Origin: a virus
Lineage: Duplodnaviria > Caudoviricetes
Length of the DNA: 59,877 bases
Direction: 5' to 3' (one strand)
Virus record (IMG/VR): IMGVR_UViG_3300037504_001591
Location: 1 to 59,877 of that record
The position numbers and the translations under genes were made by a program. Under the pieces are notes generated by a model. The model did not search any database. It was not told the origin of the DNA and saw only the letters and a list, made by a program, of their open reading frames with translations. Positions 4,746 to 47,246 of this stretch are shown piece after piece (position 1 is the stretch's first letter; the number at the start of each line of letters is the position of its first letter).

Positions 4746-4992
4746 ATTTATCTAACTCCTCTGTCCTAATTTGCTCAAAATAAAAACAAATAACCTCATT
4801 TAGTTCTTCTAATACTTGTTTAAAAGTATAATTATCAAAATACTCTAATATCTTATCCTTAAATATTAAAAGCCTTCTTTTAAAATCAATCTTAAATCTT
4901 TCATAATGATATAAATAAGTTTCTATAAAATCATCTGTAATTTTGATTCCCTCATCCCCCATATACTCTATGTAATCATAGATTCTATTCAT
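4738..4992 (-). CDS. Hypothetical protein
   Basis: ORF with AGGAG SD in operon. Confidence 0.7.
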   Translation of the reverse strand: MNRIYDYIEYMGDEGIKITDDFIETYLYHYERFKIDFKRRLLIFKDKILEYFDNYTFKQVLEELNEVICFYFEQIRTEELDKYE

Positions 4993-6841: not shown

Positions 6842-7039
6842 CTATCTCCTATCCATAAATCTAAAAGATATATTTATTAATATAAAAGTAATAAATATAC
6901 CCCCAAAAAACCCAGAAAGTATTAAAATTAAAATACTTCCAGGTATTATGTTAAAAATAGTCAAAATAATTAACACAACTACAAGTAATGTTAAACCAAT
7001 TAACATAAACTCACCCTTAGTCAATTTTCTTATTCTCAT
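6842..7039 (-). CDS. Small two-TM membrane protein
   Basis: Two hydrophobic helices in 65 aa. Confidence 0.65.
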   Translation of the reverse strand: MRIRKLTKGEFMLIGLTLLVVVLIILTIFNIIPGSILILILSGFFGGIFITFILINISFRFMDRR

Positions 7040-11101: not shown

Positions 11102-11407
11102 TTAATTAATTTCTTTATTCAATAACCCAATAATTTTTCTTTTATATTTTAAAACAGGTTTAACTTCATTTTTTGAATTTTTAAAAGTATAATGTGTACC
11201 TTCAAGAGTTATTATAGAGTATCCTTTTAGAAGATGATCCATAAAAACTTCATGATAGGTAACAAGTACTTCCCTAACATCCGCTTTTCTTATTCTTGTT
11301 TTCTTACATATCTTTAACACAATATCTTCCATATCAATAAATCTATCTCTCTTGTGTTTTCTTATTTTCTTTTTTTCCTTCTTAAAAGGAATATCAAATT
11401 TTGACAA
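11102..11407 (-). CDS. HU/IHF-like DNA-binding protein
   Basis: DIVLKICKKTRIRKADVREVL....EVFMDHLLKGYSIITLEG matches HU helix/strand pattern; TTG start with AAGGAG. Confidence 0.65.
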   Translation of the reverse strand: MSKFDIPFKKEKKKIRKHKRDRFIDMEDIVLKICKKTRIRKADVREVLVTYHEVFMDHLLKGYSIITLEGTHYTFKNSKNEVKPVLKYKRKIIGLLNKEIN

Positions 11408-11547
11408 AATAACTCCTTAATAAAAGCATTTAAATAATAAGTTATATTCAATAATACTTTTATATTAAATATCTTAAAAGTATCAAATTTTAACCCATTT
11501 TATGCAAATAAAAATAAATCTGTATTAATTCACATATATATAATATA

Positions 11548-11576
11548 AATATAATAAATATTTACAAAAAAGTCAA
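11548..11576 (-). promoter_or_regulatory. Sigma70-type promoter
   Basis: TTGACT-17-TATATT upstream of the HU-like gene. Confidence 0.65.
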
Positions 11577-11806
11577 GTATTCTTATTAATTTTTATGTGT
11601 TAATTTTATAAATTTGGGTTATTAACTTCGGAATGTTAACAATTCAAATTTTTTTTAAAAAAAATTTAAAAAATTTTTTAGATAATATAGAAAAGGGAAA
11701 GATATAAATTTTGGAAGTATACTAAATTTTTTTTGTGCATATTTTTGCTAGTATACGATGTATAAAGACGTGTCTTTTATTTTTTTTTCTTTTTTTTTAA
11801 TTTGTT

Positions 11807-11848
11807 TTTACTTTACTTTAAGTTTATCTTTACTTTACTTTAAGTTTA
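11807..11848. repeat. Tandem 20-bp direct repeat TTTACTTTACTTTAAGTTTA, 22-bp period
   Basis: Copies at 11807-11826 and 11829-11848. Confidence 0.85.
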
Positions 11849-11880
11849 ATGATTAATTATGCTTTAACTTTACTTATAAC

Positions 11881-11908
11881 CGTTTCGTTTCTCATACAAA
11901 ACGAAACG
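11881..11908. repeat. 10-bp inverted repeat / hairpin CGTTTCGTTT-N8-AAACGAAACG
   Basis: Direct reading. Confidence 0.85.
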
Positions 11909-11968
11909 AGTTAATCGACAAGTCTTTATTTCTTTGCCATACCTCTCTCTAAATTTTTTAATTTAGAG

Positions 11969-11998
11969 ATTATATATTGAATATAATATATATATCAA
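11969..11998 (-). promoter_or_regulatory. Candidate sigma70 promoter TTGATA-18-TATAAT
   Basis: Consensus match upstream of a hairpin, SD and mini-ORF; AT-rich context weakens it. Confidence 0.45.
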
Positions 11999-12031
11999 TA
12001 TTAAAAAAGAATTATATTAAATTTCTATTAA

Positions 12032-12092
12032 GTACATGTACGTAGTACTTAATAAGTACATGTACGTAAAATTTATCATGTACATGTACGTA
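12032..12092. repeat. Three GTACATGTACGTA repeats at exact 24-bp period (iteron/operator-like)
   Basis: Starts at 12032, 12056, 12080; core GTACATGTAC is a perfect palindrome. Confidence 0.9.
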
Positions 12093-12211
12093 GAATTTTT
12101 GATATATTTAAATTTTTTATATAATTAAAATATATAATAGATTTTTATATCAAATTTTATTCAAATTTCCCTTTATAGCTTAAAGATTTATCCATAAATT
12201 TATGAAAATAT

Positions 12212-12240
12212 TTGACTTTTTTCCCTTTTTTGATTAAATT
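12212..12240 (+). promoter_or_regulatory. Sigma70-type promoter
   Basis: TTGACT-17-TAAATT, same boxes as the 11082 promoter. Confidence 0.7.
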
Positions 12241-12246
12241 TAAAGT

Positions 12247-12460
12247 AGAGTTACTTATTATATCTTTAAATTTAGTTTACTCTCCGCTTCTTCTCTTGAT
12301 GAGAAGAGCGGGAGTAGCTTTATTTTAAGTAAAGATATTACCGATAGAGTTAATTCTCAATTAATACAGAATTATCAAAAACCAAACGCAAGTGAGCACG
12401 GGGGAGCCCGAAAACTCTCGGGTTTGCTCTCTTTAAATTAAACTCTGTAAACCCCTTACA
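12247..12460 (+). ncRNA. Candidate structured leader RNA / ncRNA
   Basis: GC-rich stems TACTCTCCGCTTCTTCTC/GAGAAGAGCGGGAGTA and GGGGAGCCCGA/TCGGGTTTGCTCTC between promoter and AGGAGG SD. Confidence 0.45.
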
Positions 12461-12472
12461 TTATAGGAGGAT

Positions 12473-12799
12473 ATGATGTATAATTTAGAAGATGAGGATT
12501 TTGAAAAAGTATATCAAGAAGTTTCTTTTGAATTGAAAAATTATTCTTATAAAGAATATATAAAAAAAATTATAAAAGAAGAGTCATTTATAATTAAAAT
12601 AAAAAAAATTGCAATATTTATTATGATATGTTATGGAGATGAAAATAAAATTGAAATAGGAAGAAATTCTTTTAGAATAATGTTATCAATTATATCTATC
12701 CACACAAATATAGGAGAGCAAGTTTATGCTATAACATGGGTAGGTACTCTCTTTATGAAAATTGTAAAAATATTATATGAGGATTTGGAGGTTATGTAA
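12473..12799 (+). CDS. Hypothetical protein
   Basis: AGGAGG SD, downstream of promoter 12212. Confidence 0.7.
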   Translation: MMYNLEDEDFEKVYQEVSFELKNYSYKEYIKKIIKEESFIIKIKKIAIFIMICYGDENKIEIGRNSFRIMLSIISIHTNIGEQVYAITWVGTLFMKIVKILYEDLEVM

Positions 12800-13195
12800 T
12801 TGAATAAAAAATATTACGAAGAAAATAAAGATAAATTAATAGAAAGAAGTAAAGAATATTATAAAAAAAATAAAGATAAAATATTAGCATCAAAAGATCC
12901 AGAAAAGCAAAAAAAGTATAGCAAAAGGTATTACCGTAGACATAAAGATAAAGTTAGTAATTATAATAAAGAATACTACCAAAAAAATAAAGATAAAATT
13001 CAAAAAAGAAGAAAACAAAGAGAAAATAAAAACAAAGAATACCAAAAAAAATATAGAAGAGAACATAAGAAGAAGAATAAATTATATCAAAGAGAATATA
13101 GAAAGAAAAAGAAAAGAGAAAAAGAATTATTACTAAATTCTACTCATACCCTCCTGGAGATCAAGAAGCATATAGATTATGAATCTTCTTCTTGA
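12800..13195 (+). CDS. Lys/Tyr-rich repeat protein resembling the N-terminal repeats of phage HNH endonucleases, no nuclease domain
   Basis: Repeated (K/E)YYxxNKDKI units; GGAGG SD and TTG start. Confidence 0.65.
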   Translation: MNKKYYEENKDKLIERSKEYYKKNKDKILASKDPEKQKKYSKRYYRRHKDKVSNYNKEYYQKNKDKIQKRRKQRENKNKEYQKKYRREHKKKNKLYQREYRKKKKREKELLLNSTHTLLEIKKHIDYESSS

Positions 13196-18614: not shown

Positions 18615-19487
18615 TTAAAATAATAAGTTTTGATTTATATTTTCAAAATTACTAATTAAGTAATAATCAAACGCCTTTTTTGATTCACCTCTTGATGTTG
18701 TAGAAGTTTCTTTAATGACTTTTATATTACAAAAATTTTCTATCTTTTTATTATAATTATCATATGTAAGTATAAACTTACCTTTAACTTTTTCCAAACA
18801 AGAAAATAACACCATTTCATCTATCTCATCCCAATCTTTTATAGTACCGCCTATATTCAATTTATAAGGTTTATTAGTAACACTCTTTGAATAAGGAGGA
18901 TCAATAAAAAATAATGCATTTTTATTATCCTCAAATAATTCAAATACTTTGCTAAAATTTTTATTTAGTAATGTAATTCCGTTTAAACTTGTTCTAAAAG
19001 AATCTAATGACCTAATTTTATTTTCAAATTCCAAAGCAAAGTTATGTTCTCCGCTTCTATCTATTGCAAACCCACTTTTTGTATGTGTTTGAAAAATACC
19101 TGCAAAACTCATTCTATTATAAACAAAAGTTGCCCATGCCAAAGTAACATCGTTGATTTTAATACCATTAATCAACGCATCTTTGATTAACCTAAAAGCC
19201 TTATCGTGTTCTTCTTCGGAATAAGTAGTATAAGATAGTTTATGTTTTAATTTCTCATAGCTTTCTTTATTTTGACAAACTCTAAAAAGAGTAACTAATC
19301 CTGCATTTAAATCATTATAAAAATAAGTTTTATGAGGGAATAACTCTTTTACAGATAAAGTTACTATACAAGACCCTCCAAACACATCAATAAATAGTTT
19401 AAAATTTGGATATTCATTAACTTTATCTATAATGGTAGTTATCATCTTTGATTTACCACCAAACCATTTAATTATACTATGAGCCAT
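18615..19487 (-). CDS. DNA adenine methyltransferase, D12/Dam-like
   Basis: KWFGGKS, DVFGGS, YNDLN, FIDPPY. Confidence 0.93.
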   Translation of the reverse strand: MAHSIIKWFGGKSKMITTIIDKVNEYPNFKLFIDVFGGSCIVTLSVKELFPHKTYFYNDLNAGLVTLFRVCQNKESYEKLKHKLSYTTYSEEEHDKAFRLIKDALINGIKINDVTLAWATFVYNRMSFAGIFQTHTKSGFAIDRSGEHNFALEFENKIRSLDSFRTSLNGITLLNKNFSKVFELFEDNKNALFFIDPPYSKSVTNKPYKLNIGGTIKDWDEIDEMVLFSCLEKVKGKFILTYDNYNKKIENFCNIKVIKETSTTSRGESKKAFDYYLISNFENINQNLLF

Positions 19488-20118
19488 TACTATAACCTTT
19501 ATTTTCTAGTTTTATTTTTATAATTTCAAGAGCTTTATTTATAATATCTTTTATTTTTCCATTAGTCATTTCATATTTCTTAGCTAAAGCATAATAAGTT
19601 TTATTATCATATAAATAATCTCTTAATATATTAGCTACTTTTGGAAAAAAAGTTTTAATGATTTCATCAACTTCTTTTTTTATTATCTTTTCTTTATCTG
19701 TAATACAAACATCTTTTTTATGTTTTTTTGGATTATCTGTAATAAAGTTTTTAGCATAAAATTTACATTCTTTTCTAATTAAATCAATTGCTTTTCCTCT
19801 TATTCTCACATAAGCATAAGTAATAAACTTATTCCCTTTATTAATGTTAAACTTTTGTAAAGAATCTAACAAACCTGTAAAACAATAAGCATATATTTCA
19901 TCTTTTTCAAGAAAACTATAATTTTTGAATGACTTGAGAATAGAAAAAGCAATTTTATGCAACAAATTTTTGTATTGAATAATAAAATATTCAATGATTA
20001 TCGTATCATAGATTTGGTGCAAAAAATGTATCAATCTATTCTCAAGTATATCTCTGTTTGGTGCTTGTATTTGATATTTATATTCTAATCGAAACCGTAT
20101 AAAATCTATTGTCATCAT
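19477..20118 (-). CDS. RNA polymerase sigma factor, FliA/SigK-like
   Basis: GLLDSLQKFNINKGNKFITYAYVRIRGKAIDLIRK; region 4 KTYYALAKKYEMT. Confidence 0.88.
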   Translation of the reverse strand: MMTIDFIRFRLEYKYQIQAPNRDILENRLIHFLHQIYDTIIIEYFIIQYKNLLHKIAFSILKSFKNYSFLEKDEIYAYCFTGLLDSLQKFNINKGNKFITYAYVRIRGKAIDLIRKECKFYAKNFITDNPKKHKKDVCITDKEKIIKKEVDEIIKTFFPKVANILRDYLYDNKTYYALAKKYEMTNGKIKDIINKALEIIKIKLENKGYSNGS

Positions 20119-20823: not shown

Positions 20824-21567
20824 CTAAAATAATTGATATTGAGATAACTCAACTTCTATTCTTTTATTAGCCATCTCTACAAATTCTGGATTACTTTCCA
20901 TCAATATGTAATTTCTTTTGTTTCTAATACAATCAATTGCAGTAGTTCCAGAACCACCAAACATGTCTAATACTGTATCACCCTCTTTACTATGTCTTTT
21001 TATTAAAGGGTCAATCATCCAATGATATTTTTCATTTGGATGCTTCGTTTCTTTTGGACTTCCTATATTTCCAGTGAAAACATTTACCATCTCTTTTTGA
21101 CTAATAAAATCGATATAATACTTACCTTTACTAAACCAAGCTGCCAACTCAAACCCACTTCTATAATTATTCTTCCTAATATGTGGTAAAGGATTGTTTT
21201 TAACAAAACTTAACATATTCCTAAACTTAAAAGAGGTATAAAAAGGTGTTAAATAATAAGGTCTTCCTCTATCAAAAAATAGTATTATACTTCCATCATC
21301 TTTTAACACCCTTTTACACTCTACAGAAAGTAAGTAAATAAATTGTATATAATCATCTTCTTCCATATTATCATTATATTTATCACCCCATAGCTCTTTA
21401 TTAGTAAAGAAGTTATTACTGTTTTTTCTACATCCTCTAATAGTTATCTTATTATCCTGAGCGATGTTATATGGTAAGTCGTTTATTATTAAATTAATAC
21501 TATTATCTTCTATATCTTTTACTTTTTCAAGGCAATCACCTAAATATACTTTATTTAATTCTAACAT
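20824..21567 (-). CDS. DNA methyltransferase, N6-A/N4-C beta class
   Basis: GDCLE, NDLPYN, HPNEK, DMFGGSGTT. Confidence 0.92.
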   Translation of the reverse strand: MLELNKVYLGDCLEKVKDIEDNSINLIINDLPYNIAQDNKITIRGCRKNSNNFFTNKELWGDKYNDNMEEDDYIQFIYLLSVECKRVLKDDGSIILFFDRGRPYYLTPFYTSFKFRNMLSFVKNNPLPHIRKNNYRSGFELAAWFSKGKYYIDFISQKEMVNVFTGNIGSPKETKHPNEKYHWMIDPLIKRHSKEGDTVLDMFGGSGTTAIDCIRNKRNYILMESNPEFVEMANKRIEVELSQYQLF

Positions 21568-22971: not shown

Positions 22972-23418
22972 ATGATGGTAGATTTCAATCTCCTTTGTAG
23001 TAAAGATATATACGCAGAACATAAAGGAATCGAAAGATCCTTACTTAGAAAAGCCTGTAAAACACATCGTATTACTTGTTTGTATATAGATGGTATCTCT
23101 TTTGCATATCTCGATGAGAAAACAAGATACTGTAGTTTTAGAAAATATAAAACAAGTAAAAAAGATAAAGGGGATTTTCTAGAACTCCCCCCCTTTTTTA
23201 TTGATATTGACACTTTAGTACTCCCAGCTACATTAGCTAAAATGAAAAATACAAACTCAATGACTGTATTATATTGGATAAAAAGAAACGTTATTAATTC
23301 CATAACATCGCCTTTAGTTAAATATACTTTTGTTATACTCGATGATAAAGCTATCAATATAGAGATTAATTATAAAAAATCTCGTAAACTAAAAAGAACT
23401 TTTAGATCAGGTGCCTAA
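22972..23418 (+). CDS. Putative DNA-binding protein with two Xis/MerR-like helix-turn-helix units
   Basis: GAGGTG SD; YAEHKGIERSLLRKACKTHRI and LAKMKNTNSMTVLYWIKRNVI repeats. Confidence 0.65.
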   Translation: MMVDFNLLCSKDIYAEHKGIERSLLRKACKTHRITCLYIDGISFAYLDEKTRYCSFRKYKTSKKDKGDFLELPPFFIDIDTLVLPATLAKMKNTNSMTVLYWIKRNVINSITSPLVKYTFVILDDKAINIEINYKKSRKLKRTFRSGA

Positions 23419-24380
23419 AAAGTTGCTTCTTCCTCACCTTTATTTTCTAATTTGTCCATAAGTTCAGCAACTTTATCTAGATGTGTTATATGATCCACTT
23501 CATAAATATTATGAAAACCCTTAGCTTTTAACAAGTCCATAACAGGTTTTTGCATCTCTGCGTTTTTTTGTAATTTTTCTATAATTGATACTTGTGCCTC
23601 TACTATTGGGGATCTTTCATCAACATTAATTTTAGCTAAATTTTCTAACCATTTTTTTAACTTAGATTTAGATTTTGAATCTAACTCATCAACCTTTTCT
23701 TTATTGAAAATGTTTATTAGTATATATTGTGTAATATCGACTAAACTCTCATCAATCTCAATTTTGTTTTTATCATTATCATTAGTTATATCATCTCCAG
23801 ACCCATTCCAATCTGTAGTACCATCAATAATAGGTGAATAAGAAAAAGCATTCATAATAGCTCTCTTTTTAGCCATTCCTTCCACAGATACTTTCATATA
23901 AGAATTATTATTGTTTTCTACAAAACCAACACCCCAGCTCGAAGGCATTATACTATTAATTATAGTATCACCAGGAACTCCCTTTTCTAACCATTTGCTT
24001 ATAAATTCATTATAATTATCCCATGCATTTACACCTGGAGTAGGATATAAATAATTAACTTTTATTTTACAAGTTACTCCATTATTACTATACGTGTAAT
24101 CTTCTTCAGCAGTTTCCCAATAAACATTATTAATTTTTAAAATATGTTTCATCCCATCCCATGTTATATAAGGATTACCTCCTATTAAAACTAGATGGTT
24201 TTCCTCTGGGATAAGATTGTTTTTTAGACAAGTAATTGTAGAAACGGTTGCTTGATATTTATTTAAGTCTAAATAATCATACCCTTTTCCTGTCTTTTTT
24301 CGTACGGGTATTTTGATATTATTAACAACTCGTTTGTACATTGATTTAAACTCATCAGATTGATATAAAGATTTATCCAT
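23415..24380 (-). CDS. Putative ssDNA-annealing recombinase (RecT/Bet-like)
   Basis: GNPYITWDGM and GMAKKRAIMNAF motifs; first gene of replication block. Confidence 0.6.
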   Translation of the reverse strand: MDKSLYQSDEFKSMYKRVVNNIKIPVRKKTGKGYDYLDLNKYQATVSTITCLKNNLIPEENHLVLIGGNPYITWDGMKHILKINNVYWETAEEDYTYSNNGVTCKIKVNYLYPTPGVNAWDNYNEFISKWLEKGVPGDTIINSIMPSSWGVGFVENNNNSYMKVSVEGMAKKRAIMNAFSYSPIIDGTTDWNGSGDDITNDNDKNKIEIDESLVDITQYILINIFNKEKVDELDSKSKSKLKKWLENLAKINVDERSPIVEAQVSIIEKLQKNAEMQKPVMDLLKAKGFHNIYEVDHITHLDKVAELMDKLENKGEEEATF

Positions 24381-24441
24381 GATTTTAACCTCAGAAAAGA
24401 ATTTTAGCTATATATAATGTTTATATATAGACAATATATAT

Positions 24442-24470
24442 ATAATATATAAAAAAATTCTAAAAGTCAA
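24442..24470 (-). promoter_or_regulatory. Sigma70-type promoter of the replication block
   Basis: TTGACT-17-TATTAT followed by (TA)n tract. Confidence 0.6.
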
Positions 24471-24477
24471 GAGGTTT

Positions 24478-25173
24478 TTAAAATTTTATACCAATGCTAA
24501 TTCCAATTCCTAATCCTAAACTATTTCCTAACAAATTTTGGATTTCAACAATTGCCCCTAGTTCTAACCAGCCGATATTAAATAAATATTGAAAACCTAA
24601 ATCAAATTCATTAGTAAATGCTAAAGTAGGTGTTAAAGTAACTATATGATAAGTTTTATTTTTTAGCTTTTCTATAATGTTTGTTAAATAAGCAATTTGT
24701 TTATCATATTCAACTTTTATATCTTCTATATTTTTTAATAAATCATCTCTTTCCTTACTTATTTTCTCAAGTTCTTTGATTTTAGATTCTAACTTTTTAG
24801 TTAATGTTTCAATAACATTCATTAGTTTTTCTATACTTTCCGTTTTTTCAATATTTTCTTGTTGAAGTGTTAAAAGCAATAAAATAACATTATCATCTTC
24901 TACAATATCATTATATTGTAGTAATAATATTATTCTAATTATTTCTTTCCATTGTTCTACTGTTCTTTCATCTTCAGGTATTTCACATAATTTTACAAAC
25001 TTTTCCCACAAATATTGTGCTTCAGTTGATGTTATTTCAAACCCAGACCACGATCCAACTTCACTTTCAAGTATACCTACTTCAATAGCAATATCTTCAG
25101 TAGTTTGTGCTTGTGATATTGAGGATATAAAAATTAATATTATAATTATAATTAATTTTAATAATTTACTCAT
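24478..25173 (-). CDS. Secreted coiled-coil protein with C-terminal outer-membrane beta-strand anchor (candidate spanin partner)
   Basis: Signal peptide ending SQA-Q, long heptad region, amphipathic strands ending GLGIGISIGIKF. Confidence 0.55.
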   Translation of the reverse strand: MSKLLKLIIIIILIFISSISQAQTTEDIAIEVGILESEVGSWSGFEITSTEAQYLWEKFVKLCEIPEDERTVEQWKEIIRIILLLQYNDIVEDDNVILLLLTLQQENIEKTESIEKLMNVIETLTKKLESKIKELEKISKERDDLLKNIEDIKVEYDKQIAYLTNIIEKLKNKTYHIVTLTPTLAFTNEFDLGFQYLFNIGWLELGAIVEIQNLLGNSLGLGIGISIGIKF

Positions 25174-25588
25174 TTAATTCTCCTTTAAATAAATCTATTC
25201 CTAACATTTCTGCTATCTTTTTTAAAAGTTCTTTTCTTTTCTCTAATTCTTTATCAAAATTTTCAAGAGCCTTAGCTATTGTATCATTATTTTCTTTTAT
25301 TACTGTTAATTCTTTATTCATATTTTCCTTTAATTCCTTTAATTCCCTAATATCATTATTTAGTTTTCCTAAAGTTTCATTAGCTCTTTTTTCCAAATTT
25401 TTTATTTTATCCATATTTTGATTAAATTTCTCATCAATTAACTCTTTGTTTTCTTTTACTAATTCTTTTAATAAATTAATATCTTGATTTTTATTATTCC
25501 AAAATAAAAATAAAGCAACTCCAATTATTATAATTATTAATATTAATAAATAAGTAATTATCCTAATTGTTTTTATTTGTTCATTCAT
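25166..25588 (-). CDS. N-terminal TM plus coiled-coil protein (i-spanin-like)
   Basis: One TM helix then ~100 aa heptad repeats; overlaps next gene by 8 bp. Confidence 0.55.
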   Translation of the reverse strand: MNEQIKTIRIITYLLILIIIIIGVALFLFWNNKNQDINLLKELVKENKELIDEKFNQNMDKIKNLEKRANETLGKLNNDIRELKELKENMNKELTVIKENNDTIAKALENFDKELEKRKELLKKIAEMLGIDLFKGELNE

Positions 25589-25608
25589 TGTATACTCCTT
25601 TAATTAAT

Positions 25609-27045
25609 TTAATTACTACTATCATTATCAATTTTTGTGTTAGTTCCTGCCCATTGTGATGAAGTGTTGTTGTTTGTATGAATACAAGACCCATAATCGA
25701 TATTACCCATTCCATTAGTATTAAAATTTGATAATATCCCTGCCAATCGTTCACAATCATAAAAACCATAATTTGTATTTTTATTCGCCCAACAACCACT
25801 AACCTCGTGCGTAGTCCTAAACCCGTGTCTTCCATTATTATTAGAATAACAACCTGTAACCACTCGGCAACTTTGAAATCCATCGTTTGAATTATCATAA
25901 CTCCAACAACCCGTTATCATTCGGCACTCATAAAACCCATTATTATTACCATAACTGAGAGAACTGCTAATAACCCAACTAGTGTGAAAACCAGCGTTTG
26001 TGTTACTCCTTGCCTCACAGGAAGCAAGTCTATAACAGGTAAAAAACCCACACGCACTATTTCCCGAGGCATAACAATTATTCACTTGGATACAACCAGC
26101 AAACCCATCTCCTGCATTTGATACCGCCATGCAGTTTACTAATCGGTTACAATGATCGAAACCTATCGTCGTCCCTGCTATAGCTTCGCAGTTAACACAT
26201 TTATATAGATTATAGAAAGCGTTTCCATAGTTATTAGCGACGACTATGTTTTCTGCTGTTATTGTATCATTTTCCGTAAAATTTAACGCCACTGCAGGTA
26301 CTGTTTGATTATCTTTATTACCATCTATATAAAAATCTTTTATAATAGCATTATCAACAAGTAAATTTCCCCATTGAAGAATACTTGTATTTGTATTAGC
26401 TTTTCTTTTTAAATGAGTGCTATAACCCTGACCTTCTATTGTTATTTTATTATAAACAAGTATAGGGCTTGAGATATTATAAGTACCCTCCATTAATACA
26501 ATTTTACCTTGTATTGAAGTAGTATTATAATTTTTTAAAATATCTATAGCTGCGTTTATCTCAACTTGATCATCTACTCCGTCGCAAACATAATCTGCGG
26601 TTACTTTACTTTTAGTTGTTGAATCACTTGCTGCAACTACTAATGAGGAAGTTCTTATACCTCTAGTTGAGCTTGTTGCTATATTTCCCGTTATTGTCGT
26701 ATCCTCAAAAAAATTAATATTATCACTTGATATTGTAATTAAATAGTTTATTTTAACAAAATTGGGTGTTGTTAAATTATCTATTTCTGTAGATTTCACA
26801 AACATATAATCTACTACAAGTGCATTTTCAAATATTATACATAAATAATAATCACCATCACTCATATTAGAAGGTTTATTTATGTATAATATATTCTCAG
26901 TTCTCCACTTCCACTCTATATCATATTTTGATGAATTATTTTTATAAATACCTAAACAAAATTCTTGATAGTTATAATTACTATGTTTTACTGGATGTAA
27001 TTCTATTTTTCTACCATTCACATAAACTAATTTAGTTACTACCAT
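25609..27045 (-). CDS. Tail fibre/spike with pectate-lyase-like parallel beta-helix
   Basis: VVAASDS...ADYVCDGVDDQVEINAAI, LMEGTYNI, IEGQG..T.L, IDGNK, Cys/Asn beta-helix repeats. Confidence 0.85.
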   Translation of the reverse strand: MVVTKLVYVNGRKIELHPVKHSNYNYQEFCLGIYKNNSSKYDIEWKWRTENILYINKPSNMSDGDYYLCIIFENALVVDYMFVKSTEIDNLTTPNFVKINYLITISSDNINFFEDTTITGNIATSSTRGIRTSSLVVAASDSTTKSKVTADYVCDGVDDQVEINAAIDILKNYNTTSIQGKIVLMEGTYNISSPILVYNKITIEGQGYSTHLKRKANTNTSILQWGNLLVDNAIIKDFYIDGNKDNQTVPAVALNFTENDTITAENIVVANNYGNAFYNLYKCVNCEAIAGTTIGFDHCNRLVNCMAVSNAGDGFAGCIQVNNCYASGNSACGFFTCYRLASCEARSNTNAGFHTSWVISSSLSYGNNNGFYECRMITGCWSYDNSNDGFQSCRVVTGCYSNNNGRHGFRTTHEVSGCWANKNTNYGFYDCERLAGILSNFNTNGMGNIDYGSCIHTNNNTSSQWAGTNTKIDNDSSN

Positions 27046-30861: not shown

Positions 30862-33800
30862 TTAACCTCTTAATAATTTATTTGTTTGTATATCTTGTCT
30901 AATAGTATCGGATTCTGTAGTAACTTTAGTTGTCTTTTTATCACTAACTTGAATACCAATATTATTTAAAACTTGACTTCCTTGTAAAGTATCTAATTTG
31001 TTTTGTAAACTTCTTAGACTTTCAATCAATAATTCATTACTACTTACTAAAGTCCCAATATCATTAGGTTTAATTATTTCACTTTCTGGTAAAGCACCTG
31101 GTTGAATACCACTAGATAGAGCTTTTAAACTACGATCTCCAGGAGGTATTATAGGTTTATCTATATCTGTATCTATATCTATATCTGTAGGTAATTCTTC
31201 AGTATCTTCTTCAGTATCTTCTTCAGTATTTTCCTCATCAGGATCGTTAACAACAGGATCTTCTGTATATATATTGGTCATCAATGGTATCAACACATCC
31301 TCAAGTAATGTTTCAATATTTGTTAAAATCTCTTCTAAAGCATCTGGGGAATTGTCTAAAATAGCGTCCTCAACATGGCTTAAAACTTCCTGTAAAGCAT
31401 CAAAGTTGAGTTGTTGATCATCTAATAAATCTTGTACATCTGGCAATTCTCCAAGATCACCAGTTGGCTCTGTAGTTTCTCCTGTTAATCCTAGGGCATC
31501 TACATCTATCCCTAATAACCTATATATTTCATCTGGAGTTACTCCTAATTCTAATAATCTTTGAGCCGATTTTACTAAATTTTCATACTCCATAGTTTCG
31601 TCATTGAGTTTTCTTGCTTCGATAACTAACCTTAGATAACTTCTTAATTCTTCATCATATAAAGCGTTTGTTCTACTTAATTCATCATTCATTGATTCCT
31701 GTAATTTTAGTTTTTGTAACTGTAAGTCTAATAATTCTTCTTCTAAATCAAGCATCATACCCGCATATTTTTCATCACTGCCATATAAATCTATCTCTTG
31801 CTCTTTAGCAGCTATTAAATCATCGAGTGCCTGTAATCTTAAATTATTTATAAAATCTTCACTATATCCCATTACTTGGGCTCTTTTAATAACTATTTGC
31901 TGTTCTTTACTAAATTGTGCATCCAGATTATCTAAGTTCTCTTGAATTAAATCGGCTTCTTGAAGTAATAAATCTAATCTTTCCTCTTGTGTTAATAGTC
32001 TTGTACCATCTACTTCATATAATTGTTTATCAAGTTCTAATAATTCATGTATTTTACTAAGTTGAGATGCTAAAACCATGTCTTGATCACCATAAATAGT
32101 ATATAATTGTTCTTGAAGATCCCATCTAGTATTAATTTCATCTTTCATCATTTCTAGTAAAGCATTGAACGCATCGGCATACTCATCTGAAGCATCTATT
32201 ATTTGTTGCTGGCTTTCAATATACCATTGCAGTGCATCTTGAACTTCCTCTTTATCATATTTACCTTGTTTAAACTTATCCCATGATAACCCTGCTTGTT
32301 CTAAAATTTCTCTATACTTTTCAAACCACTCATCATCTGCACTACCCCATCCTAAATTTAGAGGACCACCCCAGTTCACATCTTGTAAATCTTTTAAAGC
32401 CTGTTGTGCCTCAGCTATATTTTCTTGAGCCGCCTCAGTATTAGTAAGGGCGTCTTGCCCACTTGTAATATCAAAACCTTCCTGGTAACTTTCTACTAGT
32501 TCTCTTTGTGCATCTATTTGTGTCTCAATAGTGTTATATATCCCCATGTGCAATTTCTTTTGTAAATCTAATAAATCATTTTGATGTTGTAACTGTTGAA
32601 AAATAAGCTCATTAGCTTCTACTTGTTCTTTTAGAGATTGACTTGCTGAAGTATCAACCATTGCTTTTTGTACAACACCGATGATAGTTTTTGCTAATTT
32701 TAATGCACCTTGTACCCAAACACCTAAACCTGGAATAGCCCCTAAAGCTGTAGCAATTGTATCAAACATCACATTTCCGAAAGCATCCCAGTCTATACCT
32801 TCCCCACGTACAATTAAATCATTTATAATTCCCGCTATACCTTGTAACTGCCCAAAAACATTTTTTACAGATTCCTCATACTCTTGCATTGCTGTTAAAA
32901 CTTGTTCCCTGGTAGTTTTAGCAATATGATCAAGAGCGTCTATTTGTGCGTCATATTGATCTTGTGTAATCTCACCAGCTTCTAATTGCTCATCTAAAAT
33001 TTTTCTTTGCTTTTCTTTATATTTTTGCATTCCTTTATCGGTAGATAATTGCTTAGTAACTTGTACTTTTTTACCCGCACCAAACAAACTACCGATACTA
33101 CTAATAATAGCTAAATTTCCCTGGAAATTTCTTAATGCTAATTCTCCTAATTTATTCTGTGCATCTATTTCTTCTAATATACCATCTCTTAAAGCACGAG
33201 TTGCTTCTAATAAATCTAATTTAGCCTGCTCATAATCTCTTACTTTCTCAATAGAATCCTCAGTTGCCGCTATTTGTTCTTTTATAGCATTTGCTTCCTC
33301 ATTTAAGTTTTGAATAGTTTTTTTATCTAATGGCTGTCCCTCTTTATCTACACCTTCAGTTAGTTGGTTTTTTATAGCTATTAATCTTTGATATAAACCT
33401 TCTCTTTCCTTTAATAATTCATCTGGATCAACTTTTCCTATAAATTCCTCACCAGTAGCTAATCTAAGCTGTTCTGCCATATAGTCTCTTTTTTCTTTTA
33501 ATTGCTTTATTTCAAATGATCTTAGTTTTACTATTTCTTCCTCGTTCAATGTTTGTTCATATTGTAACCTTGCTATTTCCTGCATTATATCAAACATATC
33601 TCTAAGAGGATCAATATCTAAATCTCCAAAAGCACCGAAATCCAAATCTAATATTTCTTTCCACTGCTTATACAACCCATCAGATAATTCTTTTTGATTT
33701 TCTAAATTAGCGACAAACTCCTCACCAAACATGGCTCTTAAACGATCCTTTATAGCCTCAAGCCATTCTTGCTCGGAAATAGTTCCTTCCTCATACATTT

Positions 33801-36800
33801 GTCTAAGTGATTCGGAATCATAATAAATCTTTTCTGCACCGCCATACATAGCAGTAAACTCATCAAATTCTAAACTTTTTAATGCATCTCCTGTTTCAAC
33901 TGCCTTGTTAAATAAATCACCAAAAGAAGATATAAATTCTTCAGAAAATAAATCACCACCTTCTTTTAAATGTTTTAAAGCTCTTTGAGTTCCTTCATCT
34001 AAAGTGTTAATGATTTTAGCTAAATCACTATCACTCATTATATCTTCCCATGACCTCTTTTCATTTCTCATTGCTGTAGATAATTTATCAAATTCATCTT
34101 GATTTAAACTTTGAATTGTTGATAAATAACCTTCTAAAGTTCCGAAAGTTTGTTTTAAATTATATTCTATACCCTGCATTACTTGCTCTGCTAATTGCAA
34201 TGCAGGTGATTTCTTTTCGTATAATTCTTCTTCTCTTTTTTCTGCAGAAAATTGTGAGTATATATCTTGTTGTGCCTCTGTTAGTTGTGGTAAAGACTCA
34301 AAATATTCTATCATTAAATCTCTATATTGTTTTTGGAAATCACCGCTTGCTTGAATCACTTCTTGTTGGTATTGTATTTCTCTTTGTTTTTTATTAGCTA
34401 AATATTCCTCATCCATTACTTCTCTTAATGTATATATTTCACCAGCTATTTCTATTTCTCTATCTAAATATTCCTCACCGTATTCTATTCTCATATCTAA
34501 CTTTTTCTTTTCGTAATTATAATCCATACTTTCTATATCATTTATATACTCTGCATAAGGTCCCGATCTTTCTGTAGTTGAATCTAAATACATATCATAA
34601 AGACGTTGTTGTAAATTAGCCATCGAGGTTTCAACTTCTTTACCTTCCTCATCAAGAGTAGAACTAATATTAAAACCTTCGCCAGTAAAATCACTCATAT
34701 CCTCAAAGGTAGTATTAATGTTATCCATGATTTCTGTTATATTAATACCATAGTCTAACATTTGTTGTATGTATAATTCCATTGCTTGCTGGCGTCTTTC
34801 AAAGAATTCTGTATCTCCTTCAGTAAAATCTTGACCAGCAATATCTTTATAAATATCATAAAGGCTTTGTTGGAATTGTCTTAATTCCCCAGTACCAGTT
34901 TCAAAATCTCTACTAACAACACCATTTAATCTCTGTAAATTTTGATCTAATTTAGATACATAAGCATCTAAATCATATTCTCCTATTTGTTTGAAAGTAT
35001 CTAAAATACTAGTTATATTATCTCTTAATGATTTATCTAGTTTTGCATAAAAAATATTTTCTTTGAATTCCTCATCTCTTTTTAACATATCCTCTATTGA
35101 CATCTCAATTTCTTTACCGCTTTCATCTAATACTGTAGTTGTATAATCTGTCATTGTATAAATAGTATCTGTACTTGTTTTCATTACATTTGCTAAATCT
35201 TTTAATACATCATTTCTCTTAGTTTGACTAACAGCATTTTCATATCTATTTAAAAAATCCTCAACAGATATACCAAACTCACTACTTATTTCCTGTAGAA
35301 TACTTGCCCTTGCAGCTTTTAAAACTTCGGAAGGGTTAATCATTGATTCCTCAGCATTAGGATCTGGATTAGGTACAGCTTTTTTTCCGATACTATTTTG
35401 TATTTCCTCATCTATTTTTTCTAATTCTTTAAGGTATTTTTCTACATTAGTTTGTCTAGTATCTATTAACTTATCTTCCCATTCTTGACGACTCTTTTCC
35501 ATTTCTATATCTAATTTCTTTCTATCTGCTTCCCATTTAGATATAAACTCCTTTTCATTTGTCTCTGGATTTATAATTATTTGTAAATCTAATAATTGAG
35601 TATTATAATTAGCCCAACTATTCCTAACAAAAGCTCTCATCTCATCGTATAAATCTTTTAAAGTAATCCTGCTTTTATCCCAATGAGTCCAATAAGTCCA
35701 ATCAATCTCCCATGTTCCAGTTGATGATCCTGTAAAACCTCCACCAGTATCGCCTCCGCCATCATCGAAACCTTTTTCTAGAGATACAGTTTCTCTTTTT
35801 GTAACTTTTTGTGTTTCAAGTGTTTCTATTGCGTTATTGGTAGCATCTATAATAGCTTGATTCTCCTTATGTTTATTTGTTAATTCTTTTATCTTTGCAT
35901 CTATTCTTTTTTTACTAGTTTCTATTACTTCACCACTTGTAATATTTTCATCTGCTTCCCCACTTTCTCCTCTTAAACCTCCGCCACTAACTAAAGTAGA
36001 TGTTTTAGTACCCCCCTCAGCTGCTAAAAGCAGTTGAGTTAAACTTTCTGTTTCCGATGCTATTTGTGCACTTAAAATTGCTTGTTGCGACTCGTATTCT
36101 GCTATGGCCAATTTTTGTATTTGTACTAATAAAGCTATTTTATCATTTAAACTTAATTTCTGGTTTTCCATTATTTCTTGAATTGTGTTATTTATTGTAG
36201 CTTCTTCATAATTTGCATCTACAATAGTATCAATAATTTTTTTCTTTTCATCTCCTACTCTTAATGCTTGGGCTAAAACATCTCTAGCTACTTCTTTTTC
36301 TACTCTTAACCTTTCCCTTGCGTAGTGTTCATTTAAATCATCTATCATTCTTATTTTTTCACTATTTGACATTTTTTCACTTGCCATTATTTTCTCAATA
36401 GCTGCTTGTTGCTCTTGTTCCAATTCACTAATCATCTGTTCGCCAATTTGCCCAGTTTCATGCATTAATTGCCATAACCTATCAAAAGTTTCAAACTCCA
36501 TATCTTTACCATCAAATAAACCTCTTAATTCATCCGACATATTAGATGCATCTATTCCAGTTTCTTCCATGTAATTTGATATTTCTGCAAATTTACTTGC
36601 TACTGTATCTACCCACTTAAATTGTTTTGCGGCATCACTTAAACCAGACATTTCAACTTGACTTAAAAAGGCTTGAACATCCATATCTTGCCCGCCCTCT
36701 TTTTCAATACTCGATTTAAAACTTTCTGCATAAGTTTTTAAAGTTCTCTTTACATCCCTTTCCGCACCTTTTAAGTTTTCTAAATCTAACCCTGCACTAA

Positions 36801-39800
36801 TTTTAGCGGAAAAATCTATATTTGATATATTAGCTAACATTTCTTTTATAGCTTCTTCTTGATCACTTAAACCATCCTCTAATTCATCTTCAGTTTGAAG
36901 TTGACCTGTTCTAATATTTAATATTTCTTGAAAACCATCTATTTGTTCTTGAATATAATTATAAACTCTATCTCTTTGTTCTGGGGTAACTAATTCTGGA
37001 AGAGAAAAACCTAAATCCCCAAACATATTTTTTATATTTTGTATATCACCTACATTTTTTACCGAAAATGAAGTTTCTTGACCTGAAGATAATTTATTCA
37101 TATCAATAATTATTTTCTTTGCATCTAAAAGACTTTTAATTCTATCTTGTAAATAGTCATTAGCACCTTTTTCGGCTTCTTCTTTGTTTTTACCTTCTAT
37201 TGTTAATTCTTTTTCTATTTCTAATATTTTTTCTTTAGTATCCTCTATTTCTAATATGCTTTTAATTTGTAATTCATATTCTTTAGCAACTTTACCAGTT
37301 AAATGCAATTCTTCTTTTATATATTTTAAAGTATCTTGAGCTAATTTTACTTTTTCTTCACCTGAAGCTGAAGATATTTCTGCAATAGTTTTTTCTAATA
37401 ATACACTTGCTTTCATTTTATCTACAAATTCACTATAAGTAATATTTAATTTATCAAGTAATCTATTTAAATCTGGTATATTTTTACTAAGAGATGTTTC
37501 TAGTTCTTGTGTTGTAGATTCTAAAATAGTTTGATTACTAATTCCTAAAGATCCTAGCGAATCCGAAACGTAAGAAACTACATCTTCTACTATTAATGAT
37601 TTCTTAGCTTGTATTTGATCTAAAAAGTTATTTATAAATGCTAATCCTGACCCACTACCTGCATCTTCAAAAGATGAAATTCCTGCTATAATCATATCAT
37701 TTGTTTTTGATAAAGATTGGATAATGTTTGCATCTAAACTTTTAAAAATATTAAATAAGGTTTCTTGTTCTACCTCACCTATTTTTCCAAATATATCTTG
37801 GTAAGCATCGAGAATAAATTGGGCATTTGTTTCATCCATTGCTCCTGTAGTCATATATCCTGTGTCTGCAGTAATATTCATGTTTCTAAGCTGTTCTAAA
37901 AAATCTCTAAACTGCTCTCCGCTAGCATCTTTTGCATATTTAAATATAGTATTAAAAACTTTTTTAAGCCCCTTTATATTTGTTTCTTTATATAAATCTT
38001 TTGTACTATCTCTTAATACTTCTCCAACAGATTTTGATAGTTGCTTTAAAGCCTCTGGTAATTTATCTAATTTAAAAACATCAAAACCACCCTCATACCC
38101 AGAGAATAGGTTTTTCATATCTTCAAAACCTTTTTTACCTTGCCTAATATCTTCAGCCATCCGTGCGAAATTATCCGCTATCTCTGGTGATATTTTTGCT
38201 ATAATTCCAATAATATTATTAAATTTTTCCGTATTATTAATTAATTCTGGTGTGATTAACTCACCTTTTTCCCCAAAAACCTTAGTAAGAAGTTTAGATG
38301 ACGACCCTAATTTTTTCATCTCATCTGCCATTACATTAAACTTCTGTTCCGCCGATCCAAACATATCTAATAAGAATTTATTCCAACCAACAACAGCACC
38401 ACTCATACCCTCACCAATAGAAGCCATAAAGTTATTCCATGCCGCAGTTCCTCTTTTTTGCCATCTTTCCACAGCACCCGCAGATTTTTCATAAGCAGCC
38501 TCAGTTGTTAACCCTAATGTTTCGGCATTGAGGTTCATTTCTTCCATTATCATATTAAAATCGTCAGCAACATTCCCTGTTAAAGCAAAGGCACCTTGTA
38601 AACCCCTTACATTTTCTAATACATCTTGTAATCCATAACCATTTTCTTCTAATGTTTTCTTTAAAGTTGTTAATGTTCCTATAAAACCTTCAGCTTTAAA
38701 AGCATTTAAACCATAAGTTAAACCTAATTCATCAAATATCTTTTTAGCACCCTCTGCTGGATCTAATAAGTTTTTCATTAATGCTCTTAATTGAGTTGCG
38801 GCTTCTTCAGTATGTAAACCTGTTCTTGTTAATGCTGCTAAACCACTAGTAATTTCCTCGACGGATATTCCTAAAGTTGAAGCCTGGGTAGTGATTTGAC
38901 CTACACTATTAGATATTTCTTCTAAAGTCGCCTTAGCATATTTCATGGCTGTAAACATAGTATCGGATACTCTAGTTACATCTTCTTGAACATAATTTAA
39001 CTCATCATAAGCATTTACTAAAGATGTGATACCATCAACAACTGTATCAAACTCTGCCCTACCACCAATTGATAACTTTGCACCGATATCAAGGACTGGT
39101 TCTAAATTTGCAGCTTCAACGCCAGATGTTAAAGCCTTATACATAGCATTTGTAGCTGTTGGAATTTCTACTCCAAATTTATAAGATATATCTTTTGCTT
39201 GATTTGCTAATGCCTTAAATCCCCCAATTGAATGCAAAGTCATATCATCAATAAGAGTTCCAGATAACCTTACTCCAGAATCAAGTTCCGTAAATTTAGT
39301 TATAATACTATCTATTACTCTATTGATAGTTCTAAGTGTGCTAATTACAGTTAAACCTACACTTCTAAGATCGGTAAATGTTCTAAATAACCCTTTACCG
39401 AAAAGACCAGATTTCTTTTTTGCCTCTTGTTGTTTTCTTATTACATCATTAATTTCTTTTTCAACTATATCACTTTCTTTTTTTATTCTACTAGTATTAA
39501 AAATAGACTTAGTTGATTTCATCTTATTTAAGGTAACTAAAGTATCTTTTAATTCTTTTTCAACTATAGTACCTTCTTTTTTTGCTGCATTCATTCTTTC
39601 TGTTGATTGTTTCATTCTTAAATTATGAGCATCAGTTTGTTGTTTTTGCAATCTTTTATAAGCACTCATTAATTTCCCTATCTCTGCTATTTGTTTAATT
39701 TCAAGTGCTTTTCCTGTCAAAGGTTGTCTGTCTTTACCTAAATATGCTTTTTTTCTTATAGCATCCATTTTAGCCATTAGTTGTTGAAAACTTTTTAAAG

Positions 39801-41417: not shown

Positions 41418-42104
41418 TTATTGAATAAATAAAAAATTATAATAATTAATTAAATTAAAATATTCTTCCATTTTTTTTATAATCTCATCTTCAGTTTTTA
41501 CTGCTCCTAAATAATGATAAGGTGATAATACTTCATATTCTTTTGAAGTTTCAATTATAACAAAAGAATGACTCATTTTTAAAAAAGGGATCTTTGAAAC
41601 AATAGCTACTTTTTTTATTTTATCTTCTGGAGCAATTTTATAATAAATTAGTAACTCTTTTATATTTTCTGCTTGATCATCACAATCAAAAGAATCATCT
41701 ATCTCATTTAAAATATGCATTCTAAACCATTGCACGCCTATAGTAGATGTCCAATCTATAAATCCTCTAAAAGGATCGTTTTTATATAACCTCATTGGAA
41801 AATACATCTCTTTAATAGCTATTACATCTTCAATAGTTTTAACTTGAGGCTTATGAACTTTTAACATAGAGGATAACTCAAAAGTGCTTTTTACATATCC
41901 CTCTATCCTTGTATATGAATGATTGATTATAGTGGAATTTAAAAAATACCAAGTTTTTAAATAAAACTTTACAGGAACTTTAATCCATTTATCTTTACCT
42001 AAACATATAAGATAACTAAAAAAAGATATAAGCCCAATAACAATAAATATAGGCAAAGCCATTATAAAAATAAAAATCTTTTCAAATATAGTTAATCTTT
42101 TCAT
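41418..42104 (-). CDS. Membrane-anchored transglutaminase/papain-like protein
   Basis: N-terminal TM; FDCDDQA...SHSFVII. Confidence 0.55.
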   Translation of the reverse strand: MKRLTIFEKIFIFIMALPIFIVIGLISFFSYLICLGKDKWIKVPVKFYLKTWYFLNSTIINHSYTRIEGYVKSTFELSSMLKVHKPQVKTIEDVIAIKEMYFPMRLYKNDPFRGFIDWTSTIGVQWFRMHILNEIDDSFDCDDQAENIKELLIYYKIAPEDKIKKVAIVSKIPFLKMSHSFVIIETSKEYEVLSPYHYLGAVKTEDEIIKKMEEYFNLINYYNFLFIQ

Positions 42105-42889
42105 TCATCTTCCTCTTCCTCATTATTGATATTATGCCCATTGGTTAATACATCTAAACCGTGTAAATGGGATAAAATATCTCCAGCAAACCCAATAATA
42201 AAAGAGTGTATTTGTTGTACATCTCTTTTTGTTAATACAATACCCTCTTTAGGATTTAAAGCTAAAAGCCTGCTTTCTATATAATCTACATAAACTGGTA
42301 TAAAGCGTTGATCAATAAACTTAGAAAACTTTTTAATTAAAATTTGATCATTTGATTTTGATAATTGTGTTGCCATTTGTTCTTTCATTGCTTCTATATA
42401 ATTCTTTAATTCCTCAACTATAATTTTAACACAATTAGAAAATTGCAATTGATTGTCATTTACAAAACTCTGGATATGATCTACAAATAATCTAAATGTT
42501 TTACAACTTACTCTTGTTAAAAACCATCCAACTATAGTTTTCATTACTTCTAACTTCAATGTTGATATTTGATTCATAGAATCAATCAAAGTATCCATTT
42601 TAATATCTATTCCTGCAATCTTATCTTCTATATTTATATCTTTTTCTTCCAATGAAACTATCTTATCTTTTAATTCTTTTATAACCTCTTGTAAATCTTC
42701 CATTGCTTTCTTCTTTCTATTTCCAAATATATTTTTTAAAGATTTTAAGCCTTTGATAAAACTTTTTTTTCTTATTACATTTATAATTAAAAAGAAAAAA
42801 ATAAAAAGTATTACAAAAACTAAGGGAATAAATAATTGATTATCTTTGAAAAAGTTTAATAAGTCTAAAAAAAAATTATATTCATCCAT
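42101..42889 (-). CDS. Single-TM coiled-coil protein (holin-position gene)
   Basis: One TM then basic patch and coiled coil; directly follows candidate endolysin. Confidence 0.45.
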   Translation of the reverse strand: MDEYNFFLDLLNFFKDNQLFIPLVFVILFIFFFLIINVIRKKSFIKGLKSLKNIFGNRKKKAMEDLQEVIKELKDKIVSLEEKDINIEDKIAGIDIKMDTLIDSMNQISTLKLEVMKTIVGWFLTRVSCKTFRLFVDHIQSFVNDNQLQFSNCVKIIVEELKNYIEAMKEQMATQLSKSNDQILIKKFSKFIDQRFIPVYVDYIESRLLALNPKEGIVLTKRDVQQIHSFIIGFAGDILSHLHGLDVLTNGHNINNEEEEDE

Positions 42890-46868: not shown

Positions 46869-46878
46869 TAATAACTCC

Positions 46879-47235: not shown

Positions 47236-47246
47236 TTATTCACTCC

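Follow-up and report, generated by a model that had tools for sequence, protein, structure and literature searches.

Can a phage bridge the periplasm of its host with a pair of proteins of which the outer membrane partner is held by a beta-barrel rather than by a lipid? This question is raised by two overlapping genes, here called B and A, which occupy positions 24478 to 25588 of the IMG/VR virus record IMGVR_UViG_3300037504_001591; the window analysed is the whole of this record, 59,877 bp. The anatomy of the B-A pair is confirmed and unusual. On the evidence of its sequence and of structure models, A is exported by Sec, is no lipoprotein and closes with four strands and a final Phe, and B is a predicted membrane-anchored rod encoded directly upstream of it. 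We tentatively read the two proteins as a spanin-like envelope bridge, a function that we regard as possible but by no means assured.

A membrane rod and its putative barrel-anchored partner

Both open reading frames (ORFs) lie on the minus strand where the sequence-only reading of this DNA had placed them, B at 25166..25588 (140 amino acids, aa) and A at 24478..25173 (231 aa), and the end of B overlaps the start of A by 8 nt (25166..25173). In each gene the ribosome-binding site AAAGGAG stands 6 nt upstream of the ATG, that of A (25180..25186) within the 3' end of B and that of B (25595..25601) in the 20-nt gap after a tail-fibre-like gene which ends at 25609.

From its N-terminus, A consists of a signal peptide, a helical head, a trimer-type coiled coil and a four-strand anchor ending in Phe. 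Residues 1-22 (25108..25173, minus strand, as for all features of the pair) form a signal peptide of the signal peptidase I type, MSKLLKLIIIIILIFISSISQA followed by Q, with the cleavage site between SISQA and QT, and the mature protein has 209 aa. Because C63 is the only Cys of A there is no lipobox, in agreement with the earlier description of a cleavable signal peptide lacking a lipobox Cys. The small head, residues 23-92, carries the best-conserved motif of the family, IPEDERTVEQWKEIIRIILLL (residues 65-85, 24919..24981). It is followed by the coiled-coil stalk (residues 93-171, 24661..24897), ~79 residues or ~12 nm long, which AlphaFold2 predicts as a helix with pLDDT 85-95; lengths of the stalk and of the rod of B were calculated at 0.15 nm per residue. 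A link of just 2-3 residues leads in the model from this helix to residues 174-231 (24481..24654), which comprise four amphipathic strands (174-184, 190-200, 203-212 and 220-229) and the terminal KF, a putative outer membrane barrel segment of the 3 x 4 strand type. The block was modelled by AlphaFold2 from a six-row alignment with pLDDT 75-84. In all four strands hydrophobic residues alternate with small or polar ones, so that one face is hydrophobic and the other small or polar; the polar face of strand 4 presents G, G, G, S, G and K, and the C-terminus reads GISIGIKF with F231 as the final residue. The coiled coil, the approximately four amphipathic strands and the terminal Phe that had been noticed in the bare sequence thus reappear in the structure model.

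A three-copy model of A residues 90-231, a check that the sequence-only reading had recommended, passed its controls, giving an ipSAE of 0.54 (0.54, 0.48 and 0.60 in the individual runs) compared with 0.00 for the highest-scoring of three controls; the runs agreed in at least 90% of their contacts, and the partner pLDDT was 73 or more. In the calibration, 20 of 30 solved homo-pairs and one of 23 single chains attained this ipSAE mark, figures that hold only roughly for A, which was modelled in three copies and with its own alignment, and likeness to solved complexes can also yield a pass. The modelled interface is a parallel, in-register coiled coil with the core 96/100/103/107...167/170. In addition, residues 175-181 of one chain contact residues 226-231 of its neighbour, so that strand 1 lies beside strand 4 of the next chain, as expected if the barrel closes between chains. 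Hence A may form a homotrimer with a single 12-strand barrel, the trimer being the only stoichiometry modelled.

A Foldseek search of the PDB with A gave no match at E <=1e-3, and four of the seven best rows were trimeric-autotransporter anchors, namely AtaA (9vnj_A, E 0.068) and Hia (2gr7, 3emo and 2gr8, E 0.13-0.20). In the modelled fold these anchors are the only solved membrane-protein structures that A seems to recall, and it recalls them weakly. The matches in BFVD were likewise weak (E 0.005-0.04) and included four phage proteins whose labels mention a YadA-like anchor. A profile search of PDB sequences with the A family returned coiled-coil noise only. The YadA_anchor profile PF03895 yielded no candidate in the window at E up to 10, in a search that recovered the anchors of two phages at ~1e-15, and it was absent from the Pfam matches listed at E up to 1 for A and six family members; hhalign of the A family with the two phage YadA anchors gave a probability of 2.4%. 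Among other outer membrane families, OMP_b-brl weakly matched one of six family members (E 0.0086), which was taken as well below the 28.7-bit cut-off, and PF02321 (OEP) matched neither A nor its family at E up to 1. A structural row of Atlas pointed to an outer membrane efflux protein cluster with TM 0.32, which is below the reporting bar and serves as a lead only.

For B, hydrophobicity and charge predict one transmembrane segment at residues 10-30 (25499..25561); the top 19-residue Kyte-Doolittle window (3.23) begins at residue 10 and spans residues 10-28, and an N-in orientation is assigned because K6 and R9 precede the segment. The following residues 31-129 (25202..25498) are predicted to form a periplasmic helical rod of ~99 residues, ~15 nm if straight, and the whole has a layout like that of the inner membrane subunit of spanins (i-spanin). 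The AlphaFold2 monomer of B is one uninterrupted helix from residue 2 to residue 129 with a mean pLDDT of 92.6. Of the earlier description of B as one transmembrane segment plus a long coiled coil, the transmembrane segment therefore stands, while the coiled coil appears in the monomer model as a single helix. A word-based search found no homologue of B.

Using phmmer, we found five homologue clusters of A among 1.84 billion representatives (E 9e-18 to 7e-4). Across the resulting six clusters the length varies between 201 and 248 aa and the layout is identical, all members having the signal peptide, the shared head motif, the coiled coil and the C-terminal strands; on this ground A was ruled out as a truncated gene. 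A consensus lipobox was found in none of the nine family sequences inspected, whose cleavage sites are of the Ser/Ala/Gln type. Five of the six representatives end in F, and the sixth, from a 1005-bp contig, ends in K. Residues I65, W75 and K76 are invariant in all six sequences of one alignment (A1), the stretch I65-K76 is invariant save for residues 68 and 72 in a three-sequence alignment (A2), and G206 is invariant in the family. No Pfam or PHROG family matches the A family as its own, tblastn found no match to A among 50,697 phage records, and searches of the viral, metagenome and genome contig collections with the family alignment or with single members found no relatives; the single homologue locus recovered is L001. 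As far as these sequence searches reach, the A family is new and rare. Two leads to other families, DUF6808 from Atlas and phrog_420, which one family member matched, were dropped when neither gave a match to the window; DUF6808 was also found in no paper.

The L001 contig (1798 bp) is the sole homologue locus with readable flanks. Upstream of its A homologue, and overlapping it by 4 nt, lies a gene for a transmembrane helix followed by a long helix, the product of which aligns with B from end to end (24% identity, BLASTP E 0.004). Judged from the sequence of this one locus, the pairing of B and A is conserved. A close variant of both genes is also present in a second metagenome, run X2 of another study. 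In the piece of X2 over the strand domain of A (24421-24731) all six differences are synonymous, while in B the 19 listed differences divide into eight synonymous and 11 nonsynonymous ones; a further piece over A (24828-25119) has ten more differences, left out of the synonymous count, and the contigs of runs X1 and X3 cover scattered short pieces only.

A possible envelope bridge or surface stalk

According to the proposed mechanism, B and A would form a two-protein bridge across the periplasm that acts on the outer membrane at lysis, with an integral beta-barrel protein, A, as the outer membrane subunit in place of a lipoprotein. After export by Sec, A would trimerise, and the beta-barrel assembly machinery (BAM) would insert it as a 12-strand barrel; stalk and head would remain in the periplasm and meet the distal part of B there. 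The ~15 nm rod of B together with the ~12 nm stalk and the head of A would be enough to span the periplasm. Once the murein is degraded, the complexes would be free to collapse or cluster, and the outer membrane would be fused or ruptured. It is somewhat doubtful, though conceivable, that the pair represents the first class of spanins in which a BAM-inserted trimeric beta-barrel with a coiled-coil stalk replaces the Lol-sorted lipoprotein. Such an arrangement could be an adaptation to a diderm host in which hardly any lipoproteins, or none, are sorted to the outer membrane.

The gene order is consistent with this proposal, as the succession of B and A with an 8-nt overlap matches the layout of two-component spanins, in which the membrane-rod gene comes first and the gene of the outer membrane-targeted protein lies directly downstream. 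The tight packing, with a gap of only 20 nt to the preceding gene, and the strong ribosome-binding sites suggest late expression rather than an independently transcribed moron. The i-spanin-like layout of B, its weak, in-register PHROG matches to Rz-like spanin families, the recurrence of the pair in L001 and, for A, the features of a BAM substrate and the trimer model also speak for the proposal. A six-frame lipobox scan of the window gave a single candidate lipoprotein, at 4509-4745 (minus strand; 78 aa, LILAC with Cys14, five Cys in total), and none in or beside B. The gene directly upstream of this candidate (4738-4992) shares 8 nt with it and encodes no transmembrane segment. As a true outer membrane spanin subunit (o-spanin) the candidate was rejected, because of this neighbour and its distance of 20 kb from B; it may be an exclusion-type lipoprotein. 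Since the sole lipobox candidate has neither a transmembrane partner nor a C-terminal transmembrane domain, there is no canonical spanin in the window. We also considered B as a T4-type holin with A as its antiholin, and found no evidence in support. Of the non-lipoprotein spanin pair put forward by the sequence-only reading, the barrel-anchor anatomy (four strands, terminal Phe, trimer model) has stood up, and the spanin function is what we infer from gene order and dimensions.

Several observations weigh against a spanin-like bridge. The lipobox Cys, the defining feature of an o-spanin, is absent from A and from all five homologue clusters. There is no lysis-cassette context either: no endolysin, holin or integrase was recognised among the ORFs of at least 80 aa scanned with PHROGs and Pfam, and the gene downstream of A gives a RecT/Rad52-like lead. 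The missing endolysin, holin and integrase may lie outside the record, which is estimated to be ~50% complete, and so may ordinary spanins. The matches of B to Rz-like spanin families of PHROG (phrog_739, E 8e-4; phrog_13, E 4e-3) are in register and weak; no stretch passes alone, and they stand among matches to tape-measure and other coiled-coil proteins. B and the B-like protein of L001 share no part that is conserved as well as the head motif of A, contrary to what would be expected of a head that binds B. A barrel spanning both leaflets does not sit easily with the model in which lambda Rz/Rz1 fuse membranes through a lipid anchor. In addition, the fold resemblance of A is to trimeric autotransporters, whose stalk is extracellular, and an autotransporter-like topology would put the stalk of A outside the cell, beyond the reach of B. 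The lumen face of the strands is rich in Gly, Thr and Ser, which speaks for a stalk running through the barrel, and the lumen-facing residues E204, S226, G228 and K230 contact other chains in the trimer model, a result compatible with a barrel that is filled or narrow.

Whether the stalk lies inside or outside the outer membrane decides between the spanin-like bridge and an autotransporter. If A were a mini trimeric autotransporter, its coiled coil would pass through its own 12-strand barrel and present stalk and head on the cell surface, where they could serve in superinfection exclusion or receptor masking, in adhesion or in lysogenic conversion, and B would be an inner membrane helper or an unrelated partner. 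We consider this rather unlikely, while much in A recalls such proteins: the layout of signal peptide, head, stalk and four terminal strands with an aromatic end, the trimer model that passes its controls, the invariant G206 in the Gly/Thr/Ser-rich lumen face, and the 'IP' just before strand 1 in two homologues, P0002, which comes from a 9.8-kb contig, and P0005, comparable to NIPQ of canonical anchors. What precedes strand 1 in A itself is different. The two phage YadA anchors read AAIAGVAAMANIPQVTE at this place, an Ala/Gly-rich pore helix with the linker NIPQVTE, whereas A reads QIAYLTNIIEKLKNKTYH and its homologues are likewise bulky. This segment of A, with NIIEKLKNKTYH, is bulky and charged rather than Ala/Gly-rich, the confident inter-chain contacts of residues 150-171 are of the coiled-coil type only, and alignments of the A monomer with Hia and AtaA that include the helix have an rmsd of 17-18 A, which is weak evidence as it comes from a monomer model. 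Taken together, these three observations are compatible with a stalk that stays clear of the barrel, and the short link of 2-3 residues between helix and strand 1 also counts towards a periplasmic stalk. Neither the window nor the six family members match PF03895, and the hhalign probability is low, which counts against an autotransporter.

Gene context has to be read on both sides as well. YadA-anchor proteins have been reported in N4-like and T4-like phages, as annotated in the respective papers (PMC10654107, PMC5449768), and a record classed as a provirus could carry a gene for a surface protein next to its tail-fibre genes. Outer membrane proteins encoded beside tail-fibre genes include Lom of lambda and the lipoproteins Cor and Llp. 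Against a surface autotransporter, the conserved overlapping partner B would be unexplained, neither a gap nor an own promoter is found upstream as would be usual for a moron, and the YadA-anchor genes of Erwinia phage S6 and Salmonella phage SKML-39 are annotated without a B-like partner. The same structural evidence that agrees with the spanin-like bridge would also suit a non-lytic envelope-spanning complex, either a superinfection-exclusion block to the passage of DNA or of the tape measure, or a tether between outer and inner membrane, which in analogy to a TolC-adaptor pair or an OmpM-like tether would stabilise or time the infected envelope. For such a complex speak the position of the pair directly after the tail-fibre-like gene, the tape measure of 3104 aa, which makes passage through the envelope a major step of infection, and the Atlas lead to an efflux protein cluster. 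The receptor-blocking genes cor and llp also sit after tail-fibre genes in T1-, phi80- and T5-like phages. Known exclusion proteins, however, are single lipoproteins or inner membrane proteins, and we know of no two-part exclusion system with the layout of B and A; there is also no match to OEP in Pfam or to any other family, and late-operon packing without an own promoter speaks against expression in a lysogen. Altogether a non-lytic role is unlikely. It is more improbable still that B and A are neighbours for historical reasons only and that A is a secreted or cell-wall coiled-coil protein of a monoderm host, with no barrel. The barrel is itself a prediction, phages of Clostridium, Faecalibacterium and Bacillus are among the weak matches of the portal and the sigma factor, and use of Shine-Dalgarno sequences is strong (53 of 63 genes). 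Yet the four strands alternate hydrophobic and polar residues, five of six representatives end in Phe, one of six members has the weak match to OMP_b-brl, the pair recurs in L001, and the best TerL matches, at ~24% identity, are to phages of Gram-negative hosts. The remaining probability belongs to explanations beyond those considered here.

Genome setting and host clues

The source of B and A is an uncultured, AT-rich, siphovirus-like provirus. The record is a single contig with a G+C content of ~22-33%, and nearly all of its genes run on the minus strand. Its classification as a provirus comes from IMG/VR and the estimate of its completeness from CheckV, and a 66,494-bp contig in the protein database carries the same proteins as the window. 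Read in descending coordinates, the direction of the minus strand, matches to PHROG and Pfam mark the terminase, prohead protease, major head protein, adaptor and portal first, then the tape measure and three large tail proteins, and then B and A. The last large tail protein (25609-27045), the product of the tail-fibre-like gene, matches a minor tail protein family. By this gene order, the late structural (tail) block ends with B and A. A 97-nt gap downstream of A is followed by the gene at 23415-24380, and further along by genes for DnaB, methyltransferases, SSB, a sigma factor, MazG, a clamp-like protein, an exonuclease and a primase.

The tape measure (30862-40176, minus strand) matches PhageMin_Tail and several tape-measure PHROGs, and its length corresponds arithmetically, at ~0.15 nm per residue, to an exceptionally long tail of ~450 nm. 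Upstream of the tape-measure region, the two overlapping genes at 41418-42104 and 42101-42889 (minus strand) each encode one strong N-terminal transmembrane segment; their products match no family, and membrane proteins are unexpected within a tail-assembly block. At 46476-47633 (minus strand) lie three small tandem paralogues (130, 118 and 128 aa), each with a match to the head-scaffolding family phrog_673. For the protein next to A, of 321 aa (23415-24380, minus strand), no sequence homologue was detected in 5.8 billion clusters. Atlas places it near viral clusters of the RecT/Bet and Rad52-like types, which are leads only, and it is probably a divergent single-strand annealing protein.

Among the small early genes a 65-aa ORF (6842-7039, minus strand) resembles holins in size and layout, with two hydrophobic segments followed by the charged C-terminus RFMDRR; it has no family match, the library scans having covered ORFs of at least 80 aa. 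Two adjacent genes at 3023-3742 and 3735-4502 (minus strand) encode pentapeptide-repeat proteins of the A[DN]LxG type matching phrog_7713 (E ~1e-57 to 1e-59), and they also give rise to long spurious ORFs, both on the opposite strand and in further frames. There are two sigma-factor-like proteins of phrog_351 (1-924 and 19477-20118, minus strand) and at least four DNA methyltransferase genes (1453-2229, 18615-19487, 20824-21567 and 54091-55419), the last of which is fused to a ParB-like domain. The sole clearly plus-strand ORFs, of 108 and 131 aa and without a family match, lie at 12473-13195 beside a ~1-kb stretch (11407-12473) that holds no ORF of at least 80 aa; the region 11407-13195 may be a regulatory or switch region.

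The searches for a host gave no answer, and a diderm host is suggested solely by the BAM-type features in the sequence of A. No tRNA genes were found in the window, and no relatives of TerL were found in the genome contigs or viral contigs searched. The best matches of TerL in the phage collection were to phages of Vibrio, Pelagibacter, Haemophilus and similar hosts, and searches with the clamp, portal and sigma-factor proteins gave mixed or unannotated matches. The Shine-Dalgarno sequences found upstream of 53 of the 63 genes compare with 12% of random 17-mers. Such strong Shine-Dalgarno use speaks against a host from the Bacteroidota.

Comparison with known systems

Described spanins are by definition tied to the outer membrane by a lipoprotein anchor, and searches for spanins accordingly look for a lipobox, as set out in the survey by Kongari et al. 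2018 (PMC6139136). The survey also defines the two-component layout, in which a pair overlapping by 8 bp, such as B and A, is classed as 'separated'. The word 'beta-barrel' has no occurrence in its full text, and we found no description of a barrel-anchored spanin among the papers listed by the literature searches, the supplementary tables of which could list atypical candidates. About 15% of phages have no identifiable spanin gene, according to a bioRxiv preprint (10.1101/515445). If the spanin-like bridge is real, rupture or fusion of the outer membrane at lysis would be possible without a lipid anchor, and such a system would test whether membrane fusion by spanins depends on that anchor. 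A barrel-anchored partner would escape lipobox-based searches; partners of this kind could thus explain some of the 'spaninless' phages, especially in little-studied diderm phyla. Should A be a surface mini-autotransporter instead, it would still be notable for its shortness (231 aa) and for the conserved inner membrane partner gene. On either reading the A family is new, with no Pfam or PHROG family and few homologue clusters in a very large protein set.

With two-component spanins such as lambda Rz/Rz1, the pair shares a type-II inner membrane subunit with a helical periplasmic domain, encoded upstream of its partner gene and overlapping it, as well as a combined length that would be enough to span a periplasm and the position among late genes. 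The outer membrane partners differ, Rz1 being a 40-residue Pro-rich lipoprotein, whereas mature A has 209 aa, no lipobox, a trimer-type coiled coil and a predicted four-strand anchor. Unlike two-component spanins, B and A have no periplasmic Cys pairs and no endolysin or holin nearby among the scanned ORFs, and the sequence of B matches no spanin family beyond E ~1e-3.

With the trimeric autotransporters (type Vc; YadA, Hia and AtaA), A has in common the signal peptide, the stalk, the four C-terminal strands with an aromatic end and, in the trimer model, strands 1 and 4 as neighbours, in addition to the weak fold resemblance. Phage YadA-anchor proteins are known by annotation and, in the papers that report them, have no established role (PMC10654107, PMC5449768). 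From these A differs by the absence of a PF03895 match, of the Ala/Gly-rich pore helix and of the NIPQVTE linker. It is also shorter, with 231 aa against 379 aa for gp046 of Erwinia phage vB_EamP-S6 and 470 aa for the protein of Salmonella phage SKML-39, and unlike these two as annotated it has a conserved inner membrane partner gene. TolC-type outer membrane factors resemble the predicted A in being outer membrane trimers with four strands per chain and long helices, and their adaptors, like B, are anchored at the N-terminus and continue into a long helical domain; factor and adaptor meet in the periplasm, as is proposed here for B and A. In contrast to TolC, the strands of A are contiguous at the C-terminus and not interleaved with helices; furthermore, there is no match to the OEP or HlyD families and no transporter gene nearby, and the sole link is the Atlas row with TM 0.32.

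Other ways to disrupt the outer membrane than Rz/Rz1 are provided by the unimolecular spanin gp11 of phage T1 and by the disruptin gp28 of phiKT, as described in the respective reports (PMC6139136, bioRxiv 10.1101/515445). The latter is a small cationic peptide, and A differs from both in its putative beta-barrel anchor and its coiled-coil trimer. As presented in these reports, the two alternatives imply that the outer membrane disruption step has evolved more than once.

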